NCBI GenBank assembly: GCA_041659365.1
Contig: JBAZYH010000004.1
Span: 164 to 64,163 of the forward strand
From: Minisyncoccota bacterium
GTDB taxonomy: Bacteria > Patescibacteriota > Minisyncoccia > Phycocordibacterales > GWA1-40-21
Direction: 5' to 3'
Length of the DNA stretch: 64,000 bases
The notes below the pieces were generated by a model, which saw only the letters and a list, made by a program, of their open reading frames with translations, was not told where the DNA came from and searched no databases. How positions within the stretch are numbered: the stretch's first letter is position 1; the number at the start of each line of letters is the position of its first letter. Made by a program: the position numbers and the translations under genes. Below are positions 1 through 54,909 of this stretch, piece by piece.

Positions 1-24
1 TACTCCGTCGCAATCCAGGTTAGT

Positions 25-175
25 ATTTATTTTTTTTGTATTGTCATTCCCGCGTAGGCGGGAATCCAGTATTATCGTATTTCCGTCTTTGCGAGGAACG
101 AAGCAATCCAGGTTTGTATTCAATTAATCATGGATTCCTGCCTACGCAGGAATGACACAATACATAGTTGTATTA
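25..175. repeat. Cluster of about 45-nt hairpin repeat units (types A and B, in inverted and direct orientation) at the window edge
   Basis: Units are tgtcattcccgcgtaggcgggaatccag, gtctttgcgaggaacgaagcaatccagg and tggattcctgcctacgcaggaatgacacaataca. The same termini (CTGGATT...GACAATACAAAA) recur at twelve or more loci. Confidence 0.8.
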
Positions 176-2919: not shown

Positions 2920-3010
2920 GAAGGTACTCCGACGTAGTAATCCAGGTTCATGTTTTATTTTAAAATTAATTCAACCTGGATTGCGACCACGTAAAAATGA
3001 TTACATTCAC
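2920..3010. repeat. Inverted pair of B-type hairpin repeat units
   Basis: tgtgtcattacgagaaggtactccgacgtagtaatccagg ... cctggattgcgaccacgtaaaaatgattacattcacgtggcacagcgtcaggatacttcctcgcaaagaca. Confidence 0.75.
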
Positions 3011-3121
3011 GTGGCACAGCGTCAGGATACTTCCTCGCAAAGACACTCAATAAACAACACAAATAAAAACACGAAGAATTTTCGCTTTGCGAAAATTCTT
3101 CGTGTTTTTACCTTATAAATT

Positions 3122-4512: not shown

Positions 4513-6760
4513 TCATTAGTAGATTCTTTTTCTCGTCATTAATAGATGTCCATATTTCTTCTGTAAGAAATGGCATAAAAGGATGTAGGGAAGTAATAAT
4601 AATTCTAATAGTTTTTAATAGGAATTGTTTTCTAGATTCTATTTCCATTGACGCGGATTCTTGCGGACTAGACGCGGAAGATGCGGAATCTAATGCAAAT
4701 ATTTTTTTACTTTCCTCAAGTATTACATCAGCAAAATTCTTCCATGCGTATTGATATATTTTATCTCCAGCCATGTAGAACCTGTAGTCTTCCATATCTT
4801 TTGTTATATCGGATAGGAGAGATTCCCTTTCTTCTATAAGTTTTTTATCTACTTCAGAATATTTATCAAAATTTTCTGAATATTTTGTATCCTTTGTCGA
4901 TTCAAGGACAAATCTAGTAATATTCCAAACCTTATTTGCAAAGTTTTTATAACCTTTTATTTTATCTTCTGAAATGTTCATATCTGTGCCTGGAGTATTA
5001 CCAATAATAAGAGACATTCTTCCAGCATCAGTACCAAATTTTGCTGAAATATCTAATGGATCCATATTATTACCAAGAGATTTAGACATTTTTCTTCCTT
5101 TTGCATCCCTAATCATTCCATGAAAATAAACCGTTTCAAATGGAATTGTTCCAAGGTTGTATCCGGTCATCATTATCATTCTTGATACCCAGAAAGGTAA
5201 AATATCATAACCAGTTTCTAAAACATTTGTTGGGTGATAAAAACCAAGATCATTTGTTTTTTCTGGCCAACCTAAAGTTGAGAAAGTCCAAAGTGCAGAA
5301 GAAAACCAAGTATCCAAAGTATCTTCATCTTGTACCCACCCTTCACCTTTTGGATTTTCTATATCACAAAATGTTTCATTTCCTTTATAATAAACTGGAA
5401 TACGATGACCATACCAAATTTGTCTTGAAATACACCAATCTCTGAGATTATCTATCCAGTGAAAATAAACTTTTTCAAAGAAATCAGGAATCATCTTTAT
5501 TTGACCATTTTCTACAGATTTTTTCATTATTTCTTTTAGTGTGACAGTATCTCCAGACTCAATACCTTTTATTTCTGAGTGTTGTATTTTAAATGATTTG
5601 CTAACAGATATAAACCATTGAAGCTTTGGTAACGGTTCTATTATTCCGCCGGTCCTTTCTGCAGTTGAAATATTTTGTTTAACAGATTCTTCTTTTTCTA
5701 AAAGTCCTTCTGTTTTTAGCCATTCTACGATAATCTCTCGTGCTTCTGTTGTTTTCTTTCCTAAAATGTTTTCTCCACCAACTGTCATTTTTGCTACTTC
5801 ATTAATAACAATTTTATCTTTTGGAAGATTGTGTCTCTCAGCCATTTCCCAGTCGATTGTGCTATGTGCAGGAGTAACGCCTAGCGCACCAGTACCAAAT
5901 TCTTTATCTACTTCTTTATCCGCTATAATTTTAATATGAATAGAAACTCCACAAAAAATTGCGTCGTATTCTTTTCCTATATATTTTTGGTAACGTTCAT
6001 CTTCTGGATGCACAGCAACAGCAACATCACCAACTTTAGTTTCTGGTCTTGTTGTTGATATTGAAATAGGGAAGTCTTTTGAATATTTAAAGGTATAAAA
6101 TTTTGCATCTCTTTCCTCATAAACTATTTCGTCATCAGAAATAACAGTTTGGCCTTTCGGATCCCAATTAACAATCCTGTATCCTTTATAAATAAGTCCG
6201 TCATCATACATCTTTTTGAAAACTGTACGAACGGCAAGGTTTCTCTTTTCATCAAGAGTAAAAGCTTCACGAGACCAATCACAAGAAGCTCCCATAGTTT
6301 TTGTTTGGGAGATAATTGTATCGTGACTTTCTTTTGCAAATTCTTTAATCCTATGAACTAATTCTTCACGTCCCAAATCAAATCTAGATTTATTCTCATT
6401 CTTTTTTATTTCTTTCTCAACTTTTGATTGGGTAGCAATACCTGCATGATCTGTACCTGGAAGCCAAAGAGTTTTCTTACCACGCATTCTGTTATAACGA
6501 ATCATTACATCTTCAACTGTAAGGGTGAGTGCATGCCCCATATGAAGTTTGCCAGTTACGTTAGCTGGGGGCATCATTATTGAATATTTTTCTTTGTGTC
6601 TTTCTGGTAGATTATCAGGATTAAAATAACCAGATTCTTCCCATAGCTTATATATTCTAGGTTCAGTTTCTTGTGGGTTATATGGCTTTAAAAATTTGCT
6701 TGCCACGTTTGAATTTTCACTTTGTTCTTTATTTATCATATTTTTTTTGTTTAATTCCAT
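4487..6760 (-). CDS. valS: Valyl-tRNA synthetase (short form lacking the C-terminal coiled coil)
   Basis: PPANVTGKLHMGHALTLTVEDVMIRYNRMRGKKTLWLPGTDHAGIATQ (HIGH region) and KMSKSLGN. ValRS-type editing and anticodon domains. Confidence 0.85.
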   Translation of the reverse strand: MELNKKNMINKEQSENSNVASKFLKPYNPQETEPRIYKLWEESGYFNPDNLPERHKEKYSIMMPPANVTGKLHMGHALTLTVEDVMIRYNRMRGKKTLWLPGTDHAGIATQSKVEKEIKKNENKSRFDLGREELVHRIKEFAKESHDTIISQTKTMGASCDWSREAFTLDEKRNLAVRTVFKKMYDDGLIYKGYRIVNWDPKGQTVISDDEIVYEERDAKFYTFKYSKDFPISISTTRPETKVGDVAVAVHPEDERYQKYIGKEYDAIFCGVSIHIKIIADKEVDKEFGTGALGVTPAHSTIDWEMAERHNLPKDKIVINEVAKMTVGGENILGKKTTEAREIIVEWLKTEGLLEKEESVKQNISTAERTGGIIEPLPKLQWFISVSKSFKIQHSEIKGIESGDTVTLKEIMKKSVENGQIKMIPDFFEKVYFHWIDNLRDWCISRQIWYGHRIPVYYKGNETFCDIENPKGEGWVQDEDTLDTWFSSALWTFSTLGWPEKTNDLGFYHPTNVLETGYDILPFWVSRMIMMTGYNLGTIPFETVYFHGMIRDAKGRKMSKSLGNNMDPLDISAKFGTDAGRMSLIIGNTPGTDMNISEDKIKGYKNFANKVWNITRFVLESTKDTKYSENFDKYSEVDKKLIEERESLLSDITKDMEDYRFYMAGDKIYQYAWKNFADVILEESKKIFALDSASSASSPQESASMEIESRKQFLLKTIRIIITSLHPFMPFLTEEIWTSINDEKKNLLMIESWPIKS

Positions 6761-7279: not shown

Positions 7280-7312
7280 TGTCATTCCTGCGTAGGCAGG
7301 AATCCATAATTA
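7280..7312. repeat. A-type hairpin repeat unit
   Basis: tgtcattcctgcgtaggcaggaatccataat. Confidence 0.75.
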
Positions 7313-7330
7313 ATTCAATATCAATATATA

Positions 7331-7590
7331 AGGGAAGTTTTCTATTTTATTTGCGTCCCCCTAAAAGGACCCGCCCATTTTAATACAAATGTTTCGGGCA
7401 AGCAGTTGGGTGACGTGATTTTGCATTAAATATCTTAATAGATTAAAGGAAATATTCTATTTAGTTTGCGTCGCGCTTCAATGGACGATTGTGCGACGTG
7501 CTAATAAATTTAATAAATACATATATGGAAATTATCTATTAGTTTGCGTCCCCCCCAATTGGACAGTTGGGTGACGTGATCTTGCTAGAT
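7331..7590 (+). repeat. Three tandem copies of a hairpin-containing unit of about 80-120 bp (GGAAAtwTCTATTtAGTTTGCGTC ... GACGTG)
   Basis: Copies start near 7331, 7448 and 7528. Each has a conserved 5' box (ttctatt(t)agtttgcgtc), a GC stem (cgtcgc/gcgacg or cgtcccc/gggtgacg) and a GGAC-containing loop (ttcaatggac, caattggaca, aaaggaccc). Confidence 0.7.
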
Positions 7591-7860
7591 CAAAAAAGAC
7601 CGTGCCCGCAGTTGTACAAACGCTGGGGACACGGTCGAAATGAGAGAACAGGTGATAAAGATCACCCTTTTCTCTTGCGATACTTCGGATCTCTCATTTT
7701 ATCTCGATGAAGGGGTAAGGTGAGCCTTACTTTTACTCTTTCGCTCGCCACTACTTGAGTCCTTCTTTTTGTGACGGGCAATACCTTTCGGTGAGCCCGA
7801 GCTACAAACCGATGTCCGCAGATCTCACATTCACGGGTCAGTTTATTAGATTCTATACTT
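7590..7860. other. GC-rich (relative to the genome) structured non-coding segment of unknown function
   Basis: Multiple stable hairpins: gaccgtg...cacggtc, gtgataaagatcac, gagagaa...ttctctt. The minus strand carries caagtagtggcgagcgaaag, which resembles the conserved 23S rRNA motif CAGTAGCGGCGAGCGAA. Confidence 0.4.
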
Positions 7861-7989
7861 TTTATATATTAAGTCAAAGAGAATAGCCTTATTTTATCTA
7901 GCCCCTTGACCTGTTTTTATGATAGTTGTAAAATTTATATGGAATCGTAAATTAACAACACAATAGGTGGACAACCAAAGGAGGTCCTA

Positions 7990-11390: not shown

Positions 11391-11781
11391 ATATTTACTT
11401 TGTTAAGAATGCATAAATATAGTTAGCAACAATTGAAATTATAATTCCTATGATAAAACCTTCTCCGCGCATTTTCCAAGTAAACTTATTGTTTGTTTTT
11501 GTTTCATTACCTGAATCAGAAAGATGGGCGTTGTTCTCACCATTTGTATTATTTTGTTTTATATTTACAGACATAAATTTAAATATTACATATTTATAAT
11601 ACTTCTCGTGTTAGCACTTGTTGGTGACCCCTTTGTCCCTAGAATGGAACACCGTTCAAAGTGAAGTAAAACGATGGAATGAAGTATTTAATTTTTATAA
11701 AATAATTCCATCTTACTCAATATAAGCTTATAAATACGAATAATAAATAATATTTAATTACCGTTAAGGGTATAGAACACT

Positions 11782-12273
11782 ATGAATACTACATTTAAAC
11801 AATTAAATACTGAAACAGAAAAAATCAGCATTAAAGATTTTTTACTAAAACCATCAGCTTATTATCAAGTCGTTCCTAATCATTTTATAAAAATTGGTAG
11901 ACCAACATTTGATGGAAAAAATGAAAGTGAAGTAGTTGCGAAATTACAGTATGCCTTTTCTATAGGAGCAAAAGTCTCAGAAGCCTGTTGTTTTGCGGGT
12001 ATTTCAAAAGATTCATTCCATAGATATTGTAAAAGATATCCAGAGTTTCGCGACAAAATAGAGCTTTTACAAAACACACCAATTTTTATTTCTAGAGTTA
12101 TTATTTATAATGCAATATTAAATAATGATTTAAAAATATCCAAGTGGTATCTTGAAAAGAAATGTCCTGAAGAATTTTCTTACAATAGACCACTTATGAT
12201 TAAATTGAAACAAAAAGAAGAAAGAATAGAATATCTGGAAGGAATTTTAAAAAATAAGAAAATTTTGTTTTAA
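11782..12273 (+). CDS. HTH-domain protein (terminase small subunit-like or transposase-like HTH)
   Basis: AKVSEACCFAGISKDSFHRYCKRYPEF is a helix-turn-helix, similar to the TerS-like HTH of CDS 28182-28598. Confidence 0.45.
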   Translation: MNTTFKQLNTETEKISIKDFLLKPSAYYQVVPNHFIKIGRPTFDGKNESEVVAKLQYAFSIGAKVSEACCFAGISKDSFHRYCKRYPEFRDKIELLQNTPIFISRVIIYNAILNNDLKISKWYLEKKCPEEFSYNRPLMIKLKQKEERIEYLEGILKNKKILF

Positions 12274-12276
12274 TTA

Positions 12277-12771
12277 TTGGGATATAAAATTTGTGTTAAA
12301 ATTAGAATTATGAAAATAAAAGAAATTAAAAAAAGAATTAATAATGCATTAGATAGACTTTACGATGTTGATCAATTTATAATTGATAATGATCTCTGTG
12401 AAAGATGTATAAATTTTAGATTTGCTCTTCATTTGCAAAATAATTTTCCAGAATATTTTGTTGATTGTGAGTACAATAAATCTCATATTGGTTTAATTAA
12501 TGATCAAAAAAGAGTTTTGGATACAGGAAATGGTAACTTTATCGATATTATTATTGGAAAACGTTCTAGATCACCAAAAGATGATTTTATCTGTTTTGAA
12601 ACTAAAAAATCGAATAGTAATGATGTTTTAGGAATAGAGAACGATATTAATAAATTAAAAATATTAACAAGTGGTGGTCAATTTGATTATAAATATGGTT
12701 TTAAAATAGTTTTTTCATTATTAAGAAAAGATGTCATACTTGAAACTTATAAAAAAGCAAAGTTATTATAG
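12277..12771 (+). CDS. Putative PD-(D/E)xK-family nuclease
   Basis: FIDIIIG ...(17 aa)... ICFETKK fits the D...ExK spacing, with an upstream conserved E (ERCINF). Confidence 0.35.
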   Translation: MGYKICVKIRIMKIKEIKKRINNALDRLYDVDQFIIDNDLCERCINFRFALHLQNNFPEYFVDCEYNKSHIGLINDQKRVLDTGNGNFIDIIIGKRSRSPKDDFICFETKKSNSNDVLGIENDINKLKILTSGGQFDYKYGFKIVFSLLRKDVILETYKKAKLL

Positions 12772-12857
12772 AGTAATGGGCTATTTTGTGGACAATTACG
12801 GATTGCTTATAATAAAAAAATATCGTAATATGTAGATGTAAAGTTGTTGTTTTTAAA

Positions 12858-13997
12858 TTGTATTTTAAAATTACGAAAATGGCGTCCATAAATCTTATAG
12901 AAAAAATAACTAATCTTTTTGTAGAAGGTAAACATCAACAAATAATAGATGTTTTGAGTGAGGAATCTGTCAGATTAAAAAAAACTGGTAAAATGGTAGC
13001 CAGTAAAAAACTTCAAAACATTATTAAAAAAATACCTATTAATAAAAGTTCTTTTGTTGGAGCATCCTCTAATCATTCTGTAAAATCAATAGATATTTCA
13101 AATTATCGTGAAAATAATCTAGTAAAAAAATATTATTCTCAAGTTACACCAGAACAAGTGATTCTAAATATTTCTGCAAAAGATAAAATAGAAAATCTTT
13201 TTAAAGAATGGGAAGATTTTGATAGACTTTCTAAACATAATCTCTTCCCAACAAATAGAATTTTATTTTATGGTCCACCTGGTACAGGAAAAACTTTGTT
13301 AGCAAATGCAATTGCACAACACTTAGATTTTCCACTTGTTTTAGTTAGGTTGGATGAATTAATCTCTTCATTTTTAGGTGAAACTGGTAAAAATATTAGA
13401 GATATATTTGAAATTGCGTCAAAAGAACCCGTGGTGTTATTTTTAGATGAAATAGATACTATTGCTAAATTTAGATCTGATGAAAAAGAATTAGGTGAAT
13501 TAAAAAGAGTTGTTACAGTTTTGTTACAAAATATTGATTTTTTTCCAAATCAATCAATAATTATTGGCGCAACAAATCACGATGGTATTCTCGATAAAGC
13601 AATCTGGAGAAGATTTCCATTAAAATTGAAATTGGATTTACCCGATATTAATAGTAGAAAATTATTGTTTAAACTTTTTTTAAAAGGAACAGATCATAGT
13701 ATTGATTACGATTTAATAGCAAACATTACCGAAGGGTTAAACGGATCAGAGATTTTTGATATTGTTCAAAATGCAAAAAAACAATCAATACTTACAAACA
13801 GTAATAAGGTTACAAATATAATTATTGCCCAATCTTATCTAATAACATATAATATAGAAAAACCTCATATTGGATCGACTAAAAAAACAATATATGCTTT
13901 GTGTCAAAAACTCAAAGATTCTGGTTTAAAACTAAGAGAAATTGAAACTATATCTGGTATAGCATATACAACTCTTCGAGATAATTTAAAAAAATAA
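12858..13997 (+). CDS. AAA+ ATPase (classic AAA family), ietA-like
   Basis: Walker A ILFYGPPGTGKTLLANAIA, Walker B VLFLDEIDTI, second region of homology (IIGATNHDGILDKAIWRRF). Confidence 0.8.
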   Translation: MYFKITKMASINLIEKITNLFVEGKHQQIIDVLSEESVRLKKTGKMVASKKLQNIIKKIPINKSSFVGASSNHSVKSIDISNYRENNLVKKYYSQVTPEQVILNISAKDKIENLFKEWEDFDRLSKHNLFPTNRILFYGPPGTGKTLLANAIAQHLDFPLVLVRLDELISSFLGETGKNIRDIFEIASKEPVVLFLDEIDTIAKFRSDEKELGELKRVVTVLLQNIDFFPNQSIIIGATNHDGILDKAIWRRFPLKLKLDLPDINSRKLLFKLFLKGTDHSIDYDLIANITEGLNGSEIFDIVQNAKKQSILTNSNKVTNIIIAQSYLITYNIEKPHIGSTKKTIYALCQKLKDSGLKLREIETISGIAYTTLRDNLKK

Positions 13998-16354
13998 TGT
14001 ATACCTTACTTATTCCAAAAGAAAAAAGTAGACGGGAGAAAAAAACAGGTGGCGGACCATTCTGGAAAGCTTATTGGGAAAAAGAAGTTGAAAAAAATCC
14101 AACCTATTATGCTTCTCAGTACAGTAAGCGTATTTCAAATTTAGATTCTGCTATTGATGGTTTTAGAAATAAATATTCTAAAAAGGATAGGAGATATTAT
14201 GCTGAAATTAAATTAGACGAAAGAGTGTCGTCAAAATCTACTGAGCCAACGAAATTGTGGATAGAAGCAGGACTGACAGTTGTTGAAACCAAGGAGCGCA
14301 ATGGAGAAACTTTTTTTACGATAAGTGGATCACTCGAAGATTTTGCAAAATTTAAAAAAATTACAGGTTCTGCAACGTTCGATACTGCTCATAGTGGTAA
14401 AGGTAAGATTCAAGATATGTCTAGGCAGGTATTCGCTGTTACTGAAATCTATGATAAAAATGATTCAATTAATAACAGAATTTCTGTACATCTTAGAGAG
14501 TTGATAAAAGATAATTACTCTAAACAACTTGATTGTGTTATTACTATACATTATGAACGAAATATATCTGAATACGATATAATTTTTAATGAAATTGAGC
14601 AAAAAATTGGGGTTGGTAATCTTCATAAGAGAGACAAAGAATTTTTTATAAGTAATATGTCGTATCGTGCAAATGTTCATATCAAACAAATTATTGATTT
14701 ACTTACTGATTCAACGTACGGCTATATTGCCCGCATAAAAATAAATCCAGAATTTATTTTTCAAAGGTCTACTCCAAGTATAAATCTAACTTCAGTTCAA
14801 ATAGGTAAATTATTAACTGATGAAAAAGTTGTTTTTATTGATAGTGGAATAGATAATAAAGTAATAAATCCTTTTATTTCCCACTCAATGAATTTTTTGT
14901 CTGGTTCAGATATTCCTGACAAAAAACACGGCACAAGTGTGGCTAGTCGATTTTTATTTGGAAATAATTTTTTTGAAAAAGTATCAAAAGGAGAAAAAAT
15001 AGATCCAACTGCAAAAATTATTGATGTTCAGATTTTACATAAAGACCCTGATGGATCTTCATCTGTTGATCCTGATGTTTTAATGAAATCAATAAAAGAA
15101 TCAACAAATAAAATAGATGACGTCACTATATATAATTTATCAATTGCTTGTAAAGAGCCTATAAACGAACAAAATGATATTGATGATTCAACTGCTTTAA
15201 TCGATAGTATCTCGAGTAAAAAAGATATTCTCTTTATTACTGCAGTTGGAAATCAAAGTGGTAATTATACACTTGGTTACAAAGATATTTTTAAAGATGA
15301 ATCTTGTAATATATCATCACCTTCTGATGCAATAAATGCTCTTTCGGTTGGTTCTATATCTGAAATTGCTCATAAAGATACTTTGTGTGGCACTGTTGAT
15401 TACCCATCTCCTTTTACAAGAAAGGGTGGTTTTCGAAATGATATTAAAAAACCAGAACTTGTAGCGTATGGTGGTAACATCGAAAAAGATATAAATAATA
15501 AATATGATATAGCACATCTTATTACATCTACAAATAAATATGGCGTTGACATAATGAGCTTGGATGAATTTTCTAGAGATATTGGAACTAGTTTAAGTGC
15601 ACCATTAATTACAAGGAGTGCTACTCTAGTATTAGATTATTTAAAAAAATCAAATCTCTCACAACAAATTCCATTATTTAAATACAATAAAGCTAATCTA
15701 GTTAAGGCATTGCTGATACATTCAACCTCCAGAATTACTCAAGCAAAAATTAAAGACGATACTCTTAAAAGAGCGTATGGTTTTGGAAAAACAGATCATA
15801 TGTCAGCTCTGTTTGATGATACAGAGGATACAGTTACTATTACGTATGCTGATGCTATTAGTTTTTCAGAGAAAAAACAGAAAATTTTAATAAAACTGCC
15901 AGACTATCTTTTGGGTCAGAATATTGAGTTTGTCTTTACACTTGTTTATAATCCACCAGTTAATTCTAATTTTAAAGAATATAAAATGGTCAATCTTCAA
16001 GGTTCTGTTGGTCTTGTGTTTCCAAAAATGGAAAATGGAAAACCAAACGGAAAAATGGATGTAAAACCTTTAGCACCATCACATAGTTGGGATAATTATA
16101 AATCATCAGATTTTAATACAATTCACTATAAAAAAAATATTAAAAAATTAGATTATCTTGATTTACAAATTGGTATTCAAATGACAGTATCAAGTCAGCT
16201 TTTGAATGAAATACCAGAAGATAAAATTTTACAAAATTACGCAATCGTTCTTTCAATAAAAGATATGTCAAAAAAAGGTAAACTTAGAAGCCAGTTGCTT
16301 CTTAAAAATCAACTCGTTGAATTAATTGAAAATCAGGTAAAAATTACAATATAG
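13997..16354 (+). CDS. Subtilisin-like S8 serine peptidase with a long N-terminal domain, ietS-like
   Basis: Catalytic triad in D-H-S order: VVFIDSGID, HGTSVASR, GTSLSAPLITR. The start is adjacent to the ATPase stop. Confidence 0.8.
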   Translation: MYTLLIPKEKSRREKKTGGGPFWKAYWEKEVEKNPTYYASQYSKRISNLDSAIDGFRNKYSKKDRRYYAEIKLDERVSSKSTEPTKLWIEAGLTVVETKERNGETFFTISGSLEDFAKFKKITGSATFDTAHSGKGKIQDMSRQVFAVTEIYDKNDSINNRISVHLRELIKDNYSKQLDCVITIHYERNISEYDIIFNEIEQKIGVGNLHKRDKEFFISNMSYRANVHIKQIIDLLTDSTYGYIARIKINPEFIFQRSTPSINLTSVQIGKLLTDEKVVFIDSGIDNKVINPFISHSMNFLSGSDIPDKKHGTSVASRFLFGNNFFEKVSKGEKIDPTAKIIDVQILHKDPDGSSSVDPDVLMKSIKESTNKIDDVTIYNLSIACKEPINEQNDIDDSTALIDSISSKKDILFITAVGNQSGNYTLGYKDIFKDESCNISSPSDAINALSVGSISEIAHKDTLCGTVDYPSPFTRKGGFRNDIKKPELVAYGGNIEKDINNKYDIAHLITSTNKYGVDIMSLDEFSRDIGTSLSAPLITRSATLVLDYLKKSNLSQQIPLFKYNKANLVKALLIHSTSRITQAKIKDDTLKRAYGFGKTDHMSALFDDTEDTVTITYADAISFSEKKQKILIKLPDYLLGQNIEFVFTLVYNPPVNSNFKEYKMVNLQGSVGLVFPKMENGKPNGKMDVKPLAPSHSWDNYKSSDFNTIHYKKNIKKLDYLDLQIGIQMTVSSQLLNEIPEDKILQNYAIVLSIKDMSKKGKLRSQLLLKNQLVELIENQVKITI

Positions 16355-16624
16355 TGTTTGGTTTTCTGGGATTATTTTATATAAACCTTGCATTAAAAGT
16401 GTATATTGATATAATCAAATGACACAATTTAATAAGTAGAGACCTAACCCTTTTAAGATTTATTTTGAAAGGTATGGTCAAAAACGCACGATACAAAAAA
16501 CCCTCACATTAGGGCGTATCGTGCGTTGTATTGGGAAACTAATACAGAGGTTTAAAAACCTTCCTAGTGTGGGGCTTTTTCGTATCTACACACTAGACAT
16601 TATTAGTCTATTAACTTAAAAAAA

Positions 16625-17671
16625 ATGAAAGTGAAGCACGATATCACTCTCGGTGAATTAGGAGTAGTTTGTGGTTTAATTATTATTGTAATTTTTGCTA
16701 TTATTTATTGGTATATAGGAATACCTGCTTTAGTAATTTGGTATCTATTTAAAAAGAGAAAAAATAAATTTCCACTAAAAACAAATTTGATTATAGCTGG
16801 TGGCACTTTAGGTGTTGTATTTTCTGTCTTTTTCATAAATTTATATATTCATAGAACACCAAGTTTAACTATTTCTGAACCACAAGATTTAATAACTCTT
16901 CAGGTTGCAACCACTACGATTAAAGGGAAGGTTAGTCCGTCTTCAAGCAATTTAACTGTTAATGGTATAAGTATTAAGGCAAATTTCGGTGGACATTTCA
17001 TATATGAGGCTTCTTTAAAAAATGAAAATAATACCTATACTTTTATTGCAAATAATAAAGATAAAAGTCAAACACAAACACTAACAATTAAACGTATATT
17101 TACTGCAGATGAATTAGCTCAAATAGAACAAGCAAAAAAAGAGGCACTTGCTAAAGCGGAAAAAGATAAAGCAGATGAATTAAAAATAAGACTACAAAGA
17201 GAAATTGATAGTTTTAATAAGCCATTTGATAATAGTATTTATCGAAATGATATAACATCTCTTACTCTTGAAGTTATGTTATTTAGTGGTTGGGCAAAGT
17301 GGATTACAGAAGGAAAAGAATCTAATAATACAGAAGTTAAAAATTTAGCGAACCAATTAGAACAAAAGGTTTCCCAACGACAAATTAAAGAATTTCCTTT
17401 AATGAGAAAAACTTACGCTAAATTAATCGGAAATTTGTTATGGGAGCAAGATATATCAGTAGAAACACTTGGTGCTACAAATAAAACGATTCAACTTACA
17501 GGTGGAATTTTTGTGGCTAATAAAAGTAAATCAACGATTCAGGAACAATTATCTAAACAATTGAGGTTATTTAGATTTACAACAGCAAATTATAAGTGGT
17601 ATGAGTATGATGAAACATATACTTATTATGATATGGATAGTTACGTGGATAGTAAGGTAATTGAGTTATAA
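16625..17671 (+). CDS. Membrane-anchored protein with coiled coil (two N-terminal TM helices, lysine-rich coiled coil)
   Basis: TM helices at residues about 12-40 and 55-75. AKKEALAKAEKDKADELKIRLQREI coiled coil. Confidence 0.4.
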   Translation: MKVKHDITLGELGVVCGLIIIVIFAIIYWYIGIPALVIWYLFKKRKNKFPLKTNLIIAGGTLGVVFSVFFINLYIHRTPSLTISEPQDLITLQVATTTIKGKVSPSSSNLTVNGISIKANFGGHFIYEASLKNENNTYTFIANNKDKSQTQTLTIKRIFTADELAQIEQAKKEALAKAEKDKADELKIRLQREIDSFNKPFDNSIYRNDITSLTLEVMLFSGWAKWITEGKESNNTEVKNLANQLEQKVSQRQIKEFPLMRKTYAKLIGNLLWEQDISVETLGATNKTIQLTGGIFVANKSKSTIQEQLSKQLRLFRFTTANYKWYEYDETYTYYDMDSYVDSKVIEL

Positions 17672-17681
17672 AAAATAATTT

Positions 17682-18065
17682 ATGAATAATGTTATCTACA
17701 CTTATGGGCATAGTGCCCGTGCTTTTTCAGAGTTCTTAAAAGGGCTTAAAGAAAATAATATAGAAATATTAATAGATTGCAGAACTCACCCACATAGTCG
17801 CTTTTGCCCTTGGTTCAATCAAAAAGCCCTCTCAGAGGGTTTAAATAAGGAAAGTATCACTTATCTATTTAAAGGTAAAAACCTTGGTGGTATGGGGGAA
17901 AATATTGATTATGAAAAAACTATAGGCGAACTAGTAGAAATGGTTAAAAAGGGAAAGAAGGTTTGTGTTATGTGTAGTGAAAAAGATTATAGAAAATGTC
18001 ATAGATTTTTAATGCTCACTCCTTCATTTGAGACAATGGGTGTAAAAGTTGAACATATAGAGTAA
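17682..18065 (+). CDS. DUF488-family protein
   Basis: MNNVIYTYGHSARAFSEFLKGLKENNIEILIDCRTHPHSRFCPWFN matches the DUF488 N-terminal signature (IYTIGHS...LVDVR..P.SR). Confidence 0.6.
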   Translation: MNNVIYTYGHSARAFSEFLKGLKENNIEILIDCRTHPHSRFCPWFNQKALSEGLNKESITYLFKGKNLGGMGENIDYEKTIGELVEMVKKGKKVCVMCSEKDYRKCHRFLMLTPSFETMGVKVEHIE

Positions 18066-18075
18066 TATATATCTT

Positions 18076-18822
18076 ATGAAAGACAACTTCGTTAAAAAAT
18101 TACTTGAGCGATTAAGTCAAAAGCAAACCATTATAAAAAGAAATTATGGAGAAAATTTATATTTAGAAAATCGTAAAAAGTTAATATCTTTATTATTAAG
18201 TCACCCATATTATATTGAGGGAATTATTAAATTAAAAAATAGTATAAAAAATAGTAAAATTCCTGTTGGGGAAAGTAATGAAAAAGTATTTTTTTGGGAG
18301 CATTTCAATGATAATAATGTTCGTCTCATAAGAAAAAAGATTCAAAAATTAATATCAGAATTTAATTTTAATGTTTTATATATTAATGATATAGAACAAT
18401 TTACTTATGATTATATAATTTGTCCGTCTAGAATTGAAAAAATTTCAAAAGAGAATATACCCAGTTTGGTTATAGTTAATACAGACGAAGATAGAAAAAT
18501 TAATGCTCATTTATTTTCTTCAAATTCTCGATATATACAAATTTTTGACTGGACAACACTTAAAGATATACAAGAAAATTGGGATAAAATTAAAGAGGGT
18601 ATTTTAGAAAAATCTATAGAAATAGATGTGAGTGATGACCTTTCTAAACTTCTTTGGAAATTAAAATTAGAAGGAAAAAATATTAAAGAAATGACTTATG
18701 ACGTGAATACTAAATACAAATATTTGTTATCCAAAATAAAAGATAACCTCTTAGGCGAAGATAATACGAGGGTATATATACATCGCTATGAGACAAGGTT
18801 AAAAAAGTTAAAAGATTTTTAA
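18076..18822 (+). CDS. Hypothetical protein (248 aa)
   Basis: ORF only. Confidence 0.35.
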   Translation: MKDNFVKKLLERLSQKQTIIKRNYGENLYLENRKKLISLLLSHPYYIEGIIKLKNSIKNSKIPVGESNEKVFFWEHFNDNNVRLIRKKIQKLISEFNFNVLYINDIEQFTYDYIICPSRIEKISKENIPSLVIVNTDEDRKINAHLFSSNSRYIQIFDWTTLKDIQENWDKIKEGILEKSIEIDVSDDLSKLLWKLKLEGKNIKEMTYDVNTKYKYLLSKIKDNLLGEDNTRVYIHRYETRLKKLKDF

Positions 18823-19034
18823 AATATTACAGGTGACAATATCAACACCTGTAATATCGTAAAAAAGAATATTTTCCTAAGATATAAGAATGATATCTAA
18901 GGAAGATTTTAAAAAAGCTCTCGGAGAAAAGATTCATTCTATTTCAGAAGAAGATATAGAAAAACTGAGAATTGGAATGGATGAAATGGCGGAAATCCTT
19001 TTTGATATTTGGAATGATAAAATAATTAAATTAG

Positions 19035-20756
19035 ATGAAGGAAAAACAATTTCAACAACAAAAAATATGTAGTTTTGGAGTTGCTAGAGTTAGTTCTGAT
19101 AAACAAGCCCAAGAAGGTGAAAGTTTTGACGACCAAAGAGATGCGATTTCTCGCTTTGCTGAAAAGAAAGGTTGGGATAATGTTTGCACTTTTCAGTTTT
19201 CTCTTTCAGGTAGAACTGAGGTTGCCGAGCTTATTAAAAGAATAGTTGATTTTTTAGAGAAAACTCCACATAAAATAAAATACTGTATATTTAAAAAAAT
19301 TGACCGCATAACTAGAGCTGGAACTGATGGGTATTCTGAGATAAAAATAGCTCTCGAAAAATATGGTGTAGAAATAATTGATACTTACGAAATAATTCAA
19401 CCAGAAAGAAACACTCTGGAACATTTAGGTTTTGATTATGATTGGAGTCATTATTCTCCTACAGGGACAGCAATTTTAATGGAAGTTAATAGAGCCAAGG
19501 ATGAAACGCGGGATATTTTAACTAGGATGATTGGACAGGAAATAAGTCTTGTTCAACAAGGATATCGAGTCCGACAAGCTCCTGACGGTTTTAAAAATGA
19601 AACGATATATGTTAATGGTAAGAAAAAATGCATAATCGTTCCTAACTCACCAAGATGTGATTATTATCTAAAAATATTTGAATTGAGGGTTCAAGGAAAT
19701 CTCACTGATGAGGAAATTGTAAAACATATAAACGCTATCGGTTTTAAATCAAGACAAAAAATTATTTGGAATATTCACAGAAACCCTATCGGAAAAACTG
19801 AAGGGACGGCTTTAACAGTTAAGCAATTACAAAGAATTGTTCAACGTCCCGTTTATGCTGGTTTTAATTATGAAAAATGGACGCATTATAAGCTTATCAA
19901 GGGTCAATACGATGGAATTGTGTCAATTGATACTTTTAATAGAGCAAATCGTGGAAAAGTTTTTATTAAGGAAAATAATGATAAAAGTTATGAATTAATT
20001 CATAATTACTCAGCAATAAGACAATCTTCAAGAAACAAAAATAATCCATTATTTCCTTTTAAATGGGTATGCTGTGATAAATGTAAAAAACCATTTTTAG
20101 CAAGCTCTCCAAAAGGTAAATCTGGGGAGGGGTTTCCTGTATATCATTGTGGTGTAAAAAATAATTTATCTAGAAATCACAAATATTATGGTATACCAAA
20201 AGATGTTTTAGATTCAAATGTTGAAATCTTACTTAAATCTTTAGAGTTTAATGATGAATATCTAGATGTATTTGAAAAAGTTCTTATAAATAAATATAGA
20301 GAACGAGAAAAAGAAGTGGTTCAAGACTCATCAAATATAAATAGAAATATTTCTAATCTACAAAGTGAACAAGTAAATTTAATAAATCAATTAATTAATA
20401 TTGAGAGCAAGATTGCTCGTAAAAATATTGAAGAAAGGATTGAGAGACTAGAAATTGATATTAATAAAGCTCGTTCGCAGAGAGATGAAATGGAAATAAA
20501 AGAGCACGATATTAAATCTTATATTAGAAGTGCAAAATATTTAATGGAACACCCAAGAGAATTGCTTATAGAACCTGATGATTTTAATATTCAGAAAGCT
20601 TTAATGAACTTAGTTTTTGATACTATGCCGACCTACTCTGAAATAATCAATGGAACACCCAAATTAGCTTTAATTTTCAAGCTATCAGAACAATTTAAAA
20701 TAAACAAAAACCTATTGGTGACCTTACGGGGAATCGAACCCCGATTACAGCCTTGA
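19035..20756 (+). CDS. Large serine recombinase (integrase). Its 3' end overlaps tRNA-Glu.
   Basis: N-terminal resolvase catalytic domain (GVARVSSDKQAQEGESFDDQRDAI), recombinase domain, zinc ribbon (CDKCKKPF...YHCG), coiled coil. The last about 40 nt are the tRNA-Glu 3' part. Confidence 0.85.
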   Translation: MKEKQFQQQKICSFGVARVSSDKQAQEGESFDDQRDAISRFAEKKGWDNVCTFQFSLSGRTEVAELIKRIVDFLEKTPHKIKYCIFKKIDRITRAGTDGYSEIKIALEKYGVEIIDTYEIIQPERNTLEHLGFDYDWSHYSPTGTAILMEVNRAKDETRDILTRMIGQEISLVQQGYRVRQAPDGFKNETIYVNGKKKCIIVPNSPRCDYYLKIFELRVQGNLTDEEIVKHINAIGFKSRQKIIWNIHRNPIGKTEGTALTVKQLQRIVQRPVYAGFNYEKWTHYKLIKGQYDGIVSIDTFNRANRGKVFIKENNDKSYELIHNYSAIRQSSRNKNNPLFPFKWVCCDKCKKPFLASSPKGKSGEGFPVYHCGVKNNLSRNHKYYGIPKDVLDSNVEILLKSLEFNDEYLDVFEKVLINKYREREKEVVQDSSNINRNISNLQSEQVNLINQLINIESKIARKNIEERIERLEIDINKARSQRDEMEIKEHDIKSYIRSAKYLMEHPRELLIEPDDFNIQKALMNLVFDTMPTYSEIINGTPKLALIFKLSEQFKINKNLLVTLRGIEPRLQP

Positions 20757-20790
20757 AAAGGCCGTGTCCTAACCGTTAGACGATAAGGCC
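20716..20790 (-). tRNA. tRNA-Glu(UUC), CCA encoded
   Basis: Minus-strand read: ggcctta-tc-gtct-aacggtta-ggac. Anticodon stem cggcc/ggctg, loop ttTTCaa. T-arm cgggg-ttcgatt-ccccg. Acceptor 3' strand taaggtc, then acca. Confidence 0.85.
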
Positions 20791-20796
20791 AAACTA

Positions 20797-20970
20797 TTTA
20801 AATACCAAACAAATCAAACCCCGAATTTACCTTCTTACAGAAGCAGTATACCTGTTCTGTTTTTTATTTCACTATCGTTCATATAAAACTATCACAGGTT
20901 TTGAATTGCTCCATGTATTCGCAATTCAACCTCTCAAAGGCCCGTCTTCTAACCGTTAGACGATAAGGCC
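20797..20970 (-). pseudogene. Degenerate tandem pseudo-tRNA-Glu. The 5' 30 nt are about 90% identical, then an insertion of about 95 nt (hairpin), then a degenerate T-arm.
   Basis: + strand 20941-20970 cccgtcttctaaccgttagacgataaggcc against the tRNA cognate gccgtgtcctaaccgttagacgataaggcc. Downstream aattcggggtttgattt against aatcggggttcgattcc. Confidence 0.6.
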
Positions 20971-37189: not shown

Positions 37190-37250
37190 ATAATTAAACC
37201 TGGATTGCCACAGGTGATTACACCTTCGCAAAGACGCACAAAAAAATTGG
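37190..37250. repeat. B-type hairpin repeat unit between trxB and ftsZ
   Basis: aacctggattgccacaggtgattacaccttcgcaaagacgcacaaaaaaa. Confidence 0.8.
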
Positions 37251-38729: not shown

Positions 38730-38780
38730 ACTGGATTCCCCCTCTTAAGGCGGGCAGGCTGTCTGCACGGGAATGACAAT
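38730..38780. repeat. A-type hairpin repeat unit
   Basis: ctggattccccctcttaaggcgggcaggctgtctgcacgggaatgacaatacaaaaac. Confidence 0.75.
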
Positions 38781-38832: not shown

Positions 38833-39057
38833 TTATTTCTTCCTTAAAATTGCTATGATGCCAATCAGGATGAAGAAACACTCTAATACGATTACTGGCC
38901 ATGCTTTTGCGGGCAGGAGACTGATGGCGATTGCTGCGGCTGCAATAATCTGAACCAGATTATACAACCTGCCTGTTGCCTCAATCTTCTTGTTAACGAC
39001 CAACGCGTAGTTGACCAGAAACATTACCATGCCAACCCAACCGATGATAGTGAACAT
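38833..39057 (-). CDS. Small two-TM membrane protein (about 75 aa)
   Basis: MFTIIGWVGMVMFLVNYALVV...IIAAAAIAISLLPAKAWPVIVLECFFILIGIIAIL. Higher GC than the flanks. Confidence 0.4.
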   Translation of the reverse strand: MFTIIGWVGMVMFLVNYALVVNKKIEATGRLYNLVQIIAAAAIAISLLPAKAWPVIVLECFFILIGIIAILRKK

Positions 39058-39264
39058 GTGAAGCTCCTTTTGTTGAAAAAATCGAAGTTGCTTATCCTTA
39101 TAAAGTATAGCACATATGATTATAAAAGTCAAGTATTTTGTATTTTCTTTATTTAATTAACAAGATAGGCTTATAAAATAAGGATATATTTAGATAGAAT
39201 ATTGAATGTTGAATGTAGAAGAATAAAAAACAGATATGGACCCCATTCCTCAATAGTATAATAG

Positions 39265-39315
39265 AAAATTCTGGATTCCCGTCTGCACGGGAATGACACA
39301 ATACATAGTTGCATT
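39265..39315. repeat. A-type hairpin repeat unit
   Basis: ctggattcccgtctgcacgggaatgacacaatacatagttgcatt. Confidence 0.75.
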
Positions 39316-39365
39316 ATTTTCAGGGGGGGGGTAAAATTATGGTATTAGTAAAGTAATTATATTTT

Positions 39366-39737
39366 ATGGAAAAAATACCACAAAATCAAACAGATGTTCC
39401 AGTGGCTGAAACAAAAGCTGAAGAACAGAAATTAGAATGGGGACCAGAACTTGGTAGAATGTCTTGGTACGACGCTGAAAATAAGATTGCAGAATTAAAT
39501 GCAGGTTTATTAGAAGGAGAAAAGCCATGGCGATTACCGACAAAAGATGAATTAGTTGCTGAGTTTAACAAAGCAGGTAAAACCCCTATCGATTTCCAAG
39601 ACGACTACTATTGGTCTGGTACCGCACTTACATATGATTTGGAAGATAGCGACCATTTTCATATAGTCAGTATGGACAAGGCCTATGTGTACCACGACGA
39701 AAAGGGTGTCGAATACTATATTCGTTTGGTTCGTTAG
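39366..39737 (+). CDS. DUF1566-like (Lcl C-terminal domain-like) protein in a GC-richer segment
   Basis: WRLPTKDELVAEF and YWSGT motifs are typical of DUF1566. Flanked by hairpin repeats on both sides. Confidence 0.45.
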   Translation: MEKIPQNQTDVPVAETKAEEQKLEWGPELGRMSWYDAENKIAELNAGLLEGEKPWRLPTKDELVAEFNKAGKTPIDFQDDYYWSGTALTYDLEDSDHFHIVSMDKAYVYHDEKGVEYYIRLVR

Positions 39738-39839: not shown

Positions 39840-39900
39840 TTTTGTGTATAAATACAAACCTGGATTGCCACGCTTCGCTCGCAATGACAATACAAAAAAG
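39840..39900. repeat. B-type hairpin repeat unit
   Basis: aacctggattgccacgcttcgctcgcaatgacaatacaaaaaag. Confidence 0.75.
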
Positions 39901-41179: not shown

Positions 41180-41290
41180 TTAATTATATCAAAGACATTT
41201 TTTAATAGCGAGAGAAAATTATAAAAAACTGTTTATTACTTATTTTAATTAAGTTTTTAGGTTATAGGTTTTAGGTTCAAGAAAAAAACT

Positions 41291-41432
41291 GGATTGCTTC
41301 GCTTTGCTCGCAAAGACAATAAAAAACACGAAAGAGTTTTATAAAACTCTTTCGTGTGTCTTTGCGAGCAAAGCGAAGCAATCCAGGGTTGTATTTAATG
41401 AATCATGGATTCCGGTCTTCACCAGAACAACA
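41291..41432. repeat. Perfect 100-bp palindrome built from two inverted B-type units around a central hairpin, plus an A-like unit
   Basis: ctggattgcttcgctttgctcgcaaagacaataaaaaacacgaaagagttttataaaactctttcgtgtgtctttgcgagcaaagcgaagcaatccag. Confidence 0.85.
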
Positions 41433-44859: not shown

Positions 44860-45065
44860 TTAGTTTTATGTATTGTCATTCCCTTGAAGAAGGGAATCCA
44901 TTGCGCGTCATTGCGAGGTACGAAGCAATCCAGGTTTAATTAATTAGTCTCGTTTTTCAAAAAAAATAACACACAATTTTAACCTGGATTGCGACGTCAG
45001 AGTACTTCCTCGCAAAGACATACAAAAAAATGGATTCCTGCCTACGTGGGAATGATAAATCTAAT
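44860..45065. repeat. Composite hairpin-repeat element with terminal inverted repeats (inverted A, inverted B, spacer, B, A)
   Basis: tattgtcattccc... ...gggaatgataaat termini. Internal gtcattgcgaggtacgaagcaatccagg and cctggattgcgacgtcagagtacttcctcgcaaagaca. Confidence 0.8.
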
Positions 45066-45227
45066 ACATTGACAAATTACAATACAGCGTGTATAATTAT
45101 ATATAATATAGTTCTTTAATAAAAACAGTTAGTCATAGCCAAAAGTCTTTAGAATATTGAGGTCTCTTGGCTATGACTACTACTGTTGTAGATCAAGCAA
45201 AACACAAAAAAGAAAGGATGATGACAA

Positions 45228-45902
45228 GTGAAAAACACACTCGTTACATCTCTGAATGGTCAAGTGCAAGCGATCATTGATATGGTCGGCATTGCAGCGA
45301 TGAACACGGTTAGAATCCGAAGTGAAGAACTCACTACGGCAGCTCGTCAGCGAGTGCTCGCTCAAGGTGACAAGTTTACCATTGAGCTATCAGCGTTTAT
45401 CACTGCCAAGATGGCTGAACTCGCCGAACAAGTTATTGGCTATCTCAAACTCATCTCCGGCGACGAAACCATCATAATCGGCGAAACCGATGGCACAGAC
45501 ACAATCGCTCTTGCGAGGGACGTGTTTACAGGTTGGGTTGACCCTGACTTCGTGAACTACGGTACAGACGTCAAAGGCCAACCGACCAAGGAAACGAAAG
45601 TACAAGTTCTAGAGATGATCAAGGACGGCAACCTCGCTCAGATCTTTGGTGGTTTTGGTGAGAATCTCGACCGCTTATGCTTGTCGCAAAGTCAAATTAT
45701 CCGTTTTGTGAAGGATCACAGTAAGTGGCTCCTCACGGGTAGTAATCATGGAACTTTCTTTTTATTCAAGGTACAAGGAGAGTTCTTTATCGCGGACGTG
45801 CTTTTGGGTGAGAGTATTATCGGTGTAGATGCTCGACATTTGTTGGATGGCGTTGTCTGGGATGCTGATCGTCGCCGTCGTGTTGTGGTTCCACAATTGT
45901 GA
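45228..45902 (+). CDS. Hypothetical protein in a GC-rich (~50%) segment, probable GTG start
   Basis: Compositionally foreign ORF bracketed by hairpin-repeat elements. Terminator cagctcgtttatc...gataaacgagctg at 45926-45968. Confidence 0.45.
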   Translation: MKNTLVTSLNGQVQAIIDMVGIAAMNTVRIRSEELTTAARQRVLAQGDKFTIELSAFITAKMAELAEQVIGYLKLISGDETIIIGETDGTDTIALARDVFTGWVDPDFVNYGTDVKGQPTKETKVQVLEMIKDGNLAQIFGGFGENLDRLCLSQSQIIRFVKDHSKWLLTGSNHGTFFLFKVQGEFFIADVLLGESIIGVDARHLLDGVVWDADRRRRVVVPQL

Positions 45903-46089
45903 CACTCAGTCACTTTTCTTGTACAGCTCGTTTATCTTTCTACTTCGGTGGACTGATAAACGAGCTGTTTTTGCTTCTGCAGAAGCATGTCGCGTAGTGT
46001 CCATTGAAACGCGACATAAATTAATAGACAATTTCCTTATATAAATTTTATACTCATCTACGCCATGGCGTAGATGAGCATTTTTGTTT

Positions 46090-46200
46090 GAGTTGTCTTT
46101 GCGAGCGAATGCGAAGCAATCCAGGATTGTATTTTATTTTAAATTAATTAATTAACCTGGATTGCTACGGGGTACCTCGCAATGACAATACAAAAGTGGA
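46090..46200. repeat. Palindromic pair of B-type hairpin units
   Basis: tgtctttgcgagcgaatgcgaagcaatccagg ... cctggattgctacggggtacctcgcaatgacaatacaaaag. Confidence 0.8.
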
Positions 46201-53030: not shown

Positions 53031-53399
53031 ATGAGAAAAATTTTATTAAATTTATTTTTGGGTTTTATTATATTGTTACCTGTTTTATCTCATTCTGCTT
53101 TGATTAATAGTGGAGACCCAGAAACTTATAATCTAGATTCTATAAAAGGTATAATAAAGGAAGGTGTAAAATGGTTTTTTGGTATTGCAGCTTCAATAGC
53201 AGCAATAGGTTTTGCAGTTGCTGGAATAAAGATTTTGATTAACCCTGGTAGTAGTTCAGAAAGAGAGGCTGCAAAAGAGGTGTTTAAGAAGACGGCTATA
53301 GGTTTATTAATTGCTGTTGTTGGACCAGCTATCGTTGTGGCGATTATTAGAGAGTTCGTTAGTGATGGAACGAATCCTCTAAGGTTTTTTAATTTTTAA
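53031..53399 (+). CDS. TrbC/VirB2-like pilin family protein (paralog 1)
   Basis: N-terminal signal/TM plus two hydrophobic helices separated by a small polar loop (GSSSEREAAKE). Confidence 0.6.
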   Translation: MRKILLNLFLGFIILLPVLSHSALINSGDPETYNLDSIKGIIKEGVKWFFGIAASIAAIGFAVAGIKILINPGSSSEREAAKEVFKKTAIGLLIAVVGPAIVVAIIREFVSDGTNPLRFFNF

Positions 53400-53408
53400 A
53401 TAAAATAA

Positions 53409-53744: not shown

Positions 53745-53748
53745 TAAA

Positions 53749-54093: not shown

Positions 54094-54183
54094 AAGTGTT
54101 TATAACTTATACATTGATAAATATACGTATAAGTATTATAATTTATTAGAAGTTAGAGGTCGTTAATTTATTTTTAAAAAAAG

Positions 54184-54495: not shown

Positions 54496-54568
54496 TATAA
54501 TTATTATAGTTTTTATTGTATAATTTAATAGTCGTTTATTTATTAGAAATAATTAAAAATTTGTTTTT

Positions 54569-54907: not shown

Positions 54908-54909
54908 AA

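Follow-up and report, generated by a model that had tools for sequence, protein, structure and literature searches.

CGTC-tagged palindromes and Ssn-related motifs in the intergenic DNA of a Minisyncoccota bacterium

We identified an abundant family of short intergenic repeats in a 64,000-nucleotide stretch of DNA (hereafter the window) from a Minisyncoccota bacterium (GenBank assembly GCA_041659365.1, contig JBAZYH010000004.1, positions 164 to 64,163). The repeats occur as 22 units over 12 loci, in two subtypes that we call type A (n = 8) and type B (n = 14). They are a known kind of hairpin, the CGTC-tagged repetitive extragenic palindromes (REPs) or Ssn-related motifs (SRMs), and type A is, as judged from its sequence, essentially the NTS motif of Neisseria. 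The novelty is modest and consists of the host lineage, the type B variant, which lies outside the published search motif, and a conserved leader. We consider it probable that the folded strand of these units is bound and nicked by a cognate Ssn nuclease encoded elsewhere in the genome.

The repeats are far more frequent than expected by chance. With 0.48 copies expected, the 9-mer CTGGATTSC is present 16 times in the window, a count that no shuffled sequence out of 100 reached. Units were located by reading the sequence by eye and with regular expressions, the latter recovering 19 of them; a covariance model built from type A recovered 12 at E<0.05, and a pattern-free repeat search returned the same families and inverted pairs (D1, D3, D4, D7, D9-D12 and D16; I3-I9 and I14-I18). 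Counted among the 22 are a unit truncated by the start of the window (1-18) and two type A units that are degenerate (at 41405-41432 and at 45030-45057); 21 units are complete. No unit overlaps a credible open reading frame (ORF), and every unit is intergenic. An initial annotation of this DNA had listed the twelve loci, two subtype consensus sequences, a unit length of about 45 nt and a strictly intergenic location, all of which held up. Units are oriented here by the published convention, with the tag first.

Read 5' to 3', the module of about 45 nt opens with a T-rich leader, which in the best copies is TTTTGTAT; the unpaired YGTC tag, a hairpin whose stem starts with AT and the CCAG(G) tail follow in that order. 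Leader and tail belong to the repeated unit, because U4 (698-734) and U8 (37200-37236), at unrelated loci, are 96% identical over 48 nt and their likeness stops there (D3). The conserved end given earlier as ...GACAATACAAAA is exact in only four units, the rest carrying a T-rich leader variant. Among the 21 complete units the tag, unpaired in the folds, is TGTC in 15, CGTC in four and degenerate in two, and the tail is CCAG or CCAT in every one. GTC precedes the stem in 19/21 and C follows it in 21/21, ends that follow partly from the unit-finding method and that are identical in the pattern-free families.

Type A has the form TGTC-ATTCCCGC-GTAG-GCGGGAAT-CCAG, with an 8-bp stem, a 4-nt G-N-A-R loop and a CCA tail. 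Folded as single-stranded DNA (ssDNA), the 8-bp ATTCCNNN stem gives z-scores of -3.2 to -4.7 relative to shuffled sequence. Type A stems also co-vary. Cores of 28 nt were collected from the window and other organisms by their tag, outer stem and tail alone; of 61 distinct ones, 40 have only Watson-Crick pairs at the four inner stem positions and 10 more have a single G-T pair there. At least nine kinds of complementary inner stem are represented (CCGC/GCGG, CCGT/ACGG, CGGC/GCCG, CTGC/GCAG, CGTT/AACG and others), while the first loop position is G in at least 90% of cores and the third is invariably A. This unfiltered count supersedes an earlier one on a filtered alignment (A1), which gave the same picture and was partly circular because its sequences had been filtered for pairing.

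The CGTC-tagged REP superfamily is characterized by an unpaired CGTC tag (TGTC in many repeats), stems of 8-9 bp that nearly always start with A-T, loops of 4-5 nt, a CCA tail, a predominance of head-to-head (HH) dimers and the absence of an adjacent transposase (Di Nocera et al. 2013, BMC Genomics 14:522; PMC3733652). Its members include CGTC-1, which is equivalent to Neisseria dRS3 and Rickettsia RPE-6, and CGTC-4, which unites RPE-4 with Wolbachia repeats; the survey covered five phyla and no member of the candidate phyla radiation (CPR) (PMC3733652). Type A has every one of these features, including the tag, the 8-bp AT-start stem, the 4-nt loop, the CCA tail and HH dimers. Type B shares the tag, stem start, tail and dimer form, tail-to-tail (TT) dimers are rare in the window, and no transposase is nearby. 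The REP-like behaviour noted in the initial annotation thus fits the layout of this superfamily.

The closest likeness is to NTS (CGTCATTCCCGCGMAVGCGGGAATCYRG), a 28-nt oriented motif. Its nuclease SsnA, a GIY-YIG protein of 94 aa with a single domain (cd10448), acts on one strand of the motif, binds and cuts it only when it is ssDNA, and places the cut immediately upstream; copies of the motif usually flank the ssnA gene (Chenal et al. 2025, Nat Commun 16:2388; PMC11893778). In that system the three bases before the palindrome are the most critical for cutting and the C after it the most critical for binding, and in N. meningitidis the NTS/SsnA pair limits the integration of transforming DNA (PMC11893778). 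U1 (42-69, + strand) agrees with the NTS consensus at 26/28 positions, and the other type A units differ mostly by compensated stem changes. Type A has the same tag, the same 8-bp ATTCCCGC stem, a G-N-A-R loop and a C-Y-R-G tail, and the units are likewise oriented, clustered, intergenic and placed around accessory genes, with a motif-ssn-motif arrangement in six other loci. Two units, U1 and U10, match the published SRM string HGTCWYN(0-2)YYVSBRHN(0-5)WNVSBRGN(0-2)RNCYNB, against 0.04 expected in the window. Our units have a conserved leader, TTTTGTAT; in Neisseria, by contrast, the flank upstream of the motif is described as variable. The host is an uncultured low-GC bacterium of CPR type, a group absent from the main text of that study (PMC11893778).

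Type B keeps the leader, tag and tail of type A but has an outer stem of just 4-7 bp, (A/T)TTGCGA...TCGCAAT, of which ATTAC/GTAAT is a compensated variant. Its interior is variable, usually 10-19 nt and up to 50 nt, in contrast to the 8-9 bp stems and 4-5 nt loops of described CGTC REPs, and in some units (U4 and U8, z -3.1) it contains an inner hairpin. This ATTGCGAG... stem with its long interior lies outside the SRM search string. A literature string search for type B returned chance primer matches only.

The units are arranged singly and in dimers. The first, U0 (1-18, +), is the 3' part of a type B unit (..TACTCCGTCGCAATCCAGG; D4) cut by the window start. It is followed by U1 (TGTCATTCCCGCGTAGGCGGGAATCCAG with leader TTTTTTGTAT; 56.2 bits, DNA z -4.7), a strict SRM match, and by an HH heterodimer with an 18-nt spacer formed by type B U2 (84-111, +; CGTCTTTGCGAGGAACGAAGCAATCCAG; D11, D12) and type A U3 (130-157, -; TGTCATTCCTGCGTAGGCAGGAATCCAT; 46.7 bits). 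U4 (-; type B, CGTCTTTGCGAAGGTGTAATCACCTGTGGCAATCCAG) has an inner 5-bp hairpin, and U5 (2909-2945, +; type B, the ATTAC/GTAAT stem variant; D16) forms an HH dimer across 30 nt with U6 (2976-3045, -; type B). U7 (7280-7307, +; 47.7 bits) is a single type A unit. The type B unit U8 (-) lies between ftsZ and trxB. Type A U9 (38731-38778, -) sits directly beyond the terminator of ORF 38833-39132, and U10 (39271-39298, -; type A, TGTCATTCCCGTGCAGACGGGAATCCAG; 50.9 bits), the other strict SRM match, is identical to units in the Saccharibacteria metagenome-assembled genome (MAG) CAYZNH01. U11 (39860-39889, -; TGTCATTGCGAGCGAAGCGTGGCAATCCAG, leader TTTTTTGTAT) is a type B unit.

The more elaborate arrangements lie between 41 and 47 kb. 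Two type B units, U12 (41289-41318, -) and U13 (41357-41386, +), form the only TT dimer (tags inward; I16), enclosing a ybeY-like terminator hairpin (41326-41357); U13 also forms an HH heterodimer with U14 (41405-41432, -; degenerate type A, TGTTGTTCTGGTGAAGACCGGAATCCAT; 27.7 bits) that is 82% identical to U2-U3 (D11). The description of this region as a perfect palindrome of up to 100 bp (41291-41390) applies to its 30-nt arms, which are 100% complementary, and not to its centre: the 30-nt terminator hairpin and a 6-nt asymmetry leave 70/98 positions of 41289-41386 self-complementary in register. The nested composite A-B...B-A (44874-45057) has as outer arms the type A units U15 (44874-44901, +; 46.3 bits) and U18 (45030-45057, -; degenerate tag TATC, 29.1 bits), and as inner arms the type B units U16 (44906-44933, +; D12) and U17 (44984-45020, -), the interior of U17 being identical to that of a unit in MAG CAYZNH01. 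Directly next to U18 is a perfect TTGACA-17-TATAAT promoter (45069-45097), its -35 box adjoining the unit. Type B units U19 (46094-46124, +) and U20 (46157-46187, -) form an HH dimer with a 32-nt spacer between two convergent terminators (I7), and U21 (60461-60497, +; I3, D16) is a single type B unit adjoining a 130-nt structured element (60307-60436).

Altogether there are six HH dimers (tags outside) with AT-rich spacers of 18-50 nt (U2/U3, U5/U6, U13/U14, U16/U17, U15/U18 and U19/U20), the U16/U17 dimer being nested within U15/U18, and seven single units. The inverted ends of the HH dimers and of the nested composite are what might be expected of a miniature inverted-repeat or palindrome-associated transposable element (MITE or PATE) derived from an insertion sequence (IS) and moved by a transposase that recognizes terminal inverted repeats, a likeness drawn in the initial annotation. 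We regard this origin as extremely improbable. The dimers lack flanking target-site duplications and IS ends, single units are as frequent as dimers, and the 28-nt core is common to several phyla, unlike IS-specific ends; no transposase was found in the window, whose sole recombinase, of the serine type, lies at a tRNA-Glu island and has no relation to the units.

Two units are themselves interrupted. U6 has in its interior a 32-nt insertion that is itself a hairpin, and U9 has a 20-nt insertion in its loop. Because both are interrupted inside the interior or loop, the exposed loop may be a target of other small insertions.

The known partner of this family is an Ssn nuclease and not an IS200/IS605 transposase. 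We searched about 1.4 Mb of other loci, fetched solely for containing the repeat pattern, and identified six small GIY-YIG ORFs (PF01541; 78-114 aa as translated, two of them as stop-to-stop frames) in loci L134, L140, L152, L163, L139 and L080. In all six cases a unit oriented like the gene precedes the start codon by 9-36 nt, and in most a further unit lies just downstream. The upstream unit is type B-like in L139, from a MAG named Candidatus Saccharibacteria; in L163, from a 'Patescibacteria group' MAG, type A lies upstream and type B downstream; and the viral contig L080 carries a unit-flanked gene at 922-1263. The protein of L140 is 94 aa long, and its residues Y7, Y18 and E65 align to the catalytic Y6, Y17 and E64 of SsnA, which were mutated in the Neisseria study (PMC11893778). 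A search of PDB sequences with an Ssn protein gave only spurious WD40 and borderline UPF0213 GIY-YIG matches. A 12-bit match to the Ssn hidden Markov model (HMM) in L169 was rejected as not credible.

The anatomy of the units also recalls classical REPs and REP doublets (REPINs) of Gammaproteobacteria, which are mobilized by REP-associated tyrosine transposases (RAYTs; Y1 enzymes of the IS200/IS605 superfamily). Common to both are a short, imperfect palindrome bearing an unpaired tag of 4 nt, pairing into inverted dimers across spacers of 18-50 nt, ssDNA recognition, intergenic location, a single-copy partner gene flanked by repeats, and vertical persistence with lineage-specific expansion. 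Mobilization by a RAYT is nevertheless very improbable here. The tag is YGTC and not the GTAG (or GTGG) that stands 5' of the hairpin in RAYT systems, GTAG being present only as the loop of some type A units, and the partner is a GIY-YIG protein unrelated to the HUH Y1 transposase. RAYT genes are never flanked by CGTC repeats (PMC3733652), whereas six GIY-YIG genes are so flanked in our loci. The IS200/IS605 TnpA or TnpB proposed earlier as the cognate partner was found neither in the window nor in the 1.4 Mb of unit-carrying loci, in weak tests that used an HUH/Y motif expression in the window and a phmmer search with a single IS200 TnpA sequence; the 2013 survey likewise reported CGTC repeats without adjacent transposases. 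Pfam scans of ten ORFs adjoining units in the window identified housekeeping proteins only, among them FtsZ, FtsA, Pth, S1 and TrxB, and no transposase.

Several observations weigh against assigning the units to an Ssn nuclease system. The window has no GIY-YIG ORF, as assessed with a motif expression and with an HMM of four Ssn proteins searched against six-frame translations. The SRM string is met by only 2/21 complete units, the remaining type A units being off by one position and type B giving no match. With standard DNA parameters the folds of most type B units are no more stable than those of shuffled sequence (z -1.6 to +1.1), so their conservation lies in sequence rather than structure, and the term hairpin repeat is thermodynamically convincing for type A and a few type B units only. 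At least some copies are probably transcribed, since ftsZ and trxB are both on the - strand and U8 would lie within their common transcript. Finally, the role in transformation has been demonstrated only in Neisseria meningitidis (PMC11893778).

With regard to type B folding, many type B interiors contain GCGAAGC. This heptamer can form an unusually stable DNA mini-hairpin that nearest-neighbour parameters miss.

Balancing these points against the sequence match, the covariation of type A and the gene association in other loci, we favour the Ssn assignment and propose the following mechanism by analogy with Neisseria and Wolbachia. When DNA becomes single-stranded during replication, repair or uptake, the strand reading from tag to tail would fold. 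The folded strand would be bound by a cognate Ssn nuclease, presumably encoded elsewhere in this genome, which would nick it upstream of the tag, at a distance of a few nucleotides. In this way the units would mark loci at which incoming or exposed ssDNA is cut, and recombination and transformation might be modulated as a result. Spread of the units probably depends on the motif-ssn-motif element, because the HH dimers look like a version of it that has lost its gene.

An alternative is that the units act at the RNA level, in 3' or 5' untranslated regions or as a small RNA, with functions such as terminator, attenuator or mRNA stabilizer. The model of the Wolbachia small RNA WsnRNA46 (Rfam RF02625), which belongs to this superfamily and is itself an HH dimer, aligns over its whole length with the U1-U3 cluster (window 24-174, - strand; E about 1e-6), U8 lies between co-oriented genes and its tail was picked up by a terminator scan, some stems contain G-T pairs, and many REPs have been argued to be transcribed (PMC3733652). 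We consider a primary function in RNA unlikely, though individual copies may have a small-RNA role. The WsnRNA46 alignment scores 40.3 bits, below the gathering score of 65.3, and Wolbachia stems have the form CCGAGTGGC; at permissive thresholds Rfam returned nothing else apart from spurious microRNA-precursor matches on the long palindrome. The hairpin has no U-run after it in one orientation and a weak one in the other, and SsnA does not bind the RNA form of its motif (PMC11893778).

The location of the units bears on the same question. They occur in either orientation, whether the flanking genes converge, diverge or run in the same direction, and a typical unit lies between a gene's canonical terminator and the next promoter. 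This position past the terminators argues against a primary role in termination and fits elements that settle where they are least harmful. A terminator as the main role of the units was rejected, as the canonical terminators of neighbouring genes adjoin units and are not in them.

Comparison with relatives indicates that the units were expanded in this lineage. We examined 21 metagenomic loci syntenic with the ftsA region (FtsA 65-87% identical) that keep the gene order rpsA-pth-...-ybeY-ftsA-ftsZ-trxB. In 177.5 kb of these relatives there are four covariance-model matches (E<1) and six regular-expression matches, compared with 12 (E<0.05) and 19 in the 64-kb window. Unit density is thus approximately tenfold lower in syntenic relatives, and we conclude that this lineage expanded the units. 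Orthologous intergenic regions consist of conserved promoters beside non-homologous filler. Upstream of ftsA there are three units in the window and none in relatives L169 and L170. The four-unit composite upstream of ORF 45228 stops precisely at a -35 box that L172 also has, and in L172 unrelated elements take the place of the composite. The ftsZ-trxB site of L172 may retain an old orthologous type B unit. Flanks differ at each locus of the window and orthologous intergenic regions of relatives are without units, as expected of independent insertions and not of one larger duplicated segment.

Nor is the family specific to this genome; the same sequence is present in viral contigs and across many phyla. 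Among IMG/VR contigs (L002-L121) the core motif is frequent, for example L026 with five units in 10 kb, L091, L072, L111 and L080; these are viral as classified, a label that may cover both true phage and misclassified cellular DNA. The extended form with the ATACAAAA flank was found at 46 genome loci in Saccharibacteria, other CPR, Nitrospirota, Planctomycetota, Bdellovibrionales, Gammaproteobacteria and others, a scan that is silent on the generality of the flank because the flank was required. Exact variants of window units were also found in two other assemblies, the Saccharibacteria MAG CAYZNH01, with 32% GC, and JBAYAG01, which is named Paceibacterota. Taken with the T4SS-pilin genes and the 32% GC of the window, they suggest an origin within the CPR/Patescibacteria.

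These data also bear on whether the units have any sequence-specific partner, or are decaying relics and neutral intergenic filler that promotes occasional homologous recombination. The missing ssn gene in the window, the degenerate or interrupted units (U6, U9, U14 and U18), the proposal that CGTC families may be heading for extinction (PMC3733652), and a second, unrelated repeat family that fills the same intergenic niche in relatives would all be in keeping with decay. We find this very improbable. Copying has been recent, because U4 and U8 are near-identical and the TT arms fully complementary; the positions critical for Ssn binding and cutting are conserved; and identical unit variants are common to other CPR MAGs.

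The second family comprises elements of approximately 110-135 nt bounded by TAGCGAGCGAG ... GGAGCGAGCC that form a long branched hairpin (RNA z -4.2) and have no Rfam match. Copies lie in the window at 754-866, 872-1001 and 60307-60436 (- strand), in L158 at 908-1033, and in intergenic regions of L169, L171 and L172. The two full-length copies of the window agree to 92%, and for one of them MAG JBAYAG01 has a copy with 96% identity. The element starts directly after the stop codons of ybeY, ftsA, ftsZ and pth in syntenic relatives. A type B unit often comes next, across about 30 nt of spacer. Mixed-repeat arrays bounded by dRS3-type hairpins near variable or surface-protein genes are also seen in the Neisseria intergenic mosaic elements (NIMEs); in our DNA, by contrast, the repeats that accompany the units form an undescribed family of another kind, and we saw no role in phage integration.

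We also considered whether the units and the second family constitute composite mobile units that set the insertion sites of acquired genes, a form of ssDNA-based gene capture or recombination control in bacteria dependent on DNA uptake. Three candidate acquired ORFs interrupt the rpsA-pth-...-ftsA-ftsZ-trxB order, are flanked by units as in the NTS-gene-NTS pattern of Neisseria, and have raised GC relative to the window (0.32 ± 0.04): a CBU_0592-family membrane protein (38833-39132; GC 0.40), an Lcl_C-domain protein (39366-39737; GC 0.39) and an ORF of unknown function (45228-45902; GC 0.48). The idea of motif-bracketed gene cassettes is weakened by L172, in which ORF 45228-45902 has the same site, promoter and leader and no units, so that units were added later or lost and need not have brought genes. 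A composite of this kind is quite unlikely.

Several other features of the window adjoin the units. U3 (126-184 with its extension) and U10 (39267-39325) share about 30 nt of extra leader (ACAATACATAGTTGYATTATTTT). Both are upstream of + strand ORFs whose -10 box comes after a G-run (GGGGGGGGTATAAT / GGGGGGGGGTAAAAT); in the first copy, at U3, an insertion of about 60 nt splits the G-run. A conserved, hairpin-containing leader (GTCATAGCCAAAAG...CTCTTGGCTATGAC; 45100-45227), about 110 nt long, separates the promoter beside U18 from ORF 45228-45902. The GTCATAGCCAAAAG leader is shared with L172 rc(171-330), and a similar one precedes a different ORF in L181 (~6500-6640); it is possibly a cis-regulatory RNA. 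A hairpin motif TTTGCGTC...CAATGGAC...GACGTGAT is present in three tandem copies within 7340-7590, in the ORF-free stretch 7308-7989. The same TTTGCGTC-type motif forms an inverted pair (1704-1754 and 45970-46020, 94% complementary), one copy upstream of a glutaredoxin-like gene and the other downstream of ORF 45228-45902. These motifs are possibly operators or small RNAs.

A low-GC island (~11700-20800, 25-30% GC) that ends at tRNA-Glu (20716-20790, -) looks like an integrated element. By eye from the translations, it encodes an AAA-ATPase-like protein (12858-13997), a subtilase-like protein (13997-16354) and a large serine-recombinase-like protein (19035-20756) whose ORF overlaps the end of the tRNA gene. 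The island also contains a LOOT RNA (16441-16562; Rfam 83.8 bits, gathering score 46.4). We identified six small paralogous ORFs at 53031-55215, four with T4SS_pilin/TrbC domains; two further copies (54009-54090 and 54390-54471) share 71% DNA identity. Runs of T4SS-pilin paralogues are typical of conjugation-like or pilus loci of the CPR. Downstream of the RNase P RNA (57323-57658) and close to it, ORF 57832-58215 is flanked by perfect palindromes of 30 nt (TACACATATACGCTATAGCGTATATGTGTA; 57783-57819 and 58209-58245) that are near-identical and look like operators.

Our analysis places this repeat family in a system whose partner enzyme was identified only in 2025, and extends that system to uncultured CPR bacteria and to many viral contigs. 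Type B travels with the same tag, tail and nuclease genes; because it falls outside the published search motif, published motif counts may be underestimates. For annotation, the units should be treated neither as IS200/IS605 relics nor as terminators, and the short spurious ORFs that they generate should not be translated. Some Saccharibacteria-type bacteria are reported to be naturally transformable. If this lineage is transformable as well, a nuclease that cuts incoming ssDNA at the units would bear on gene flow and on genetic manipulation of these organisms.

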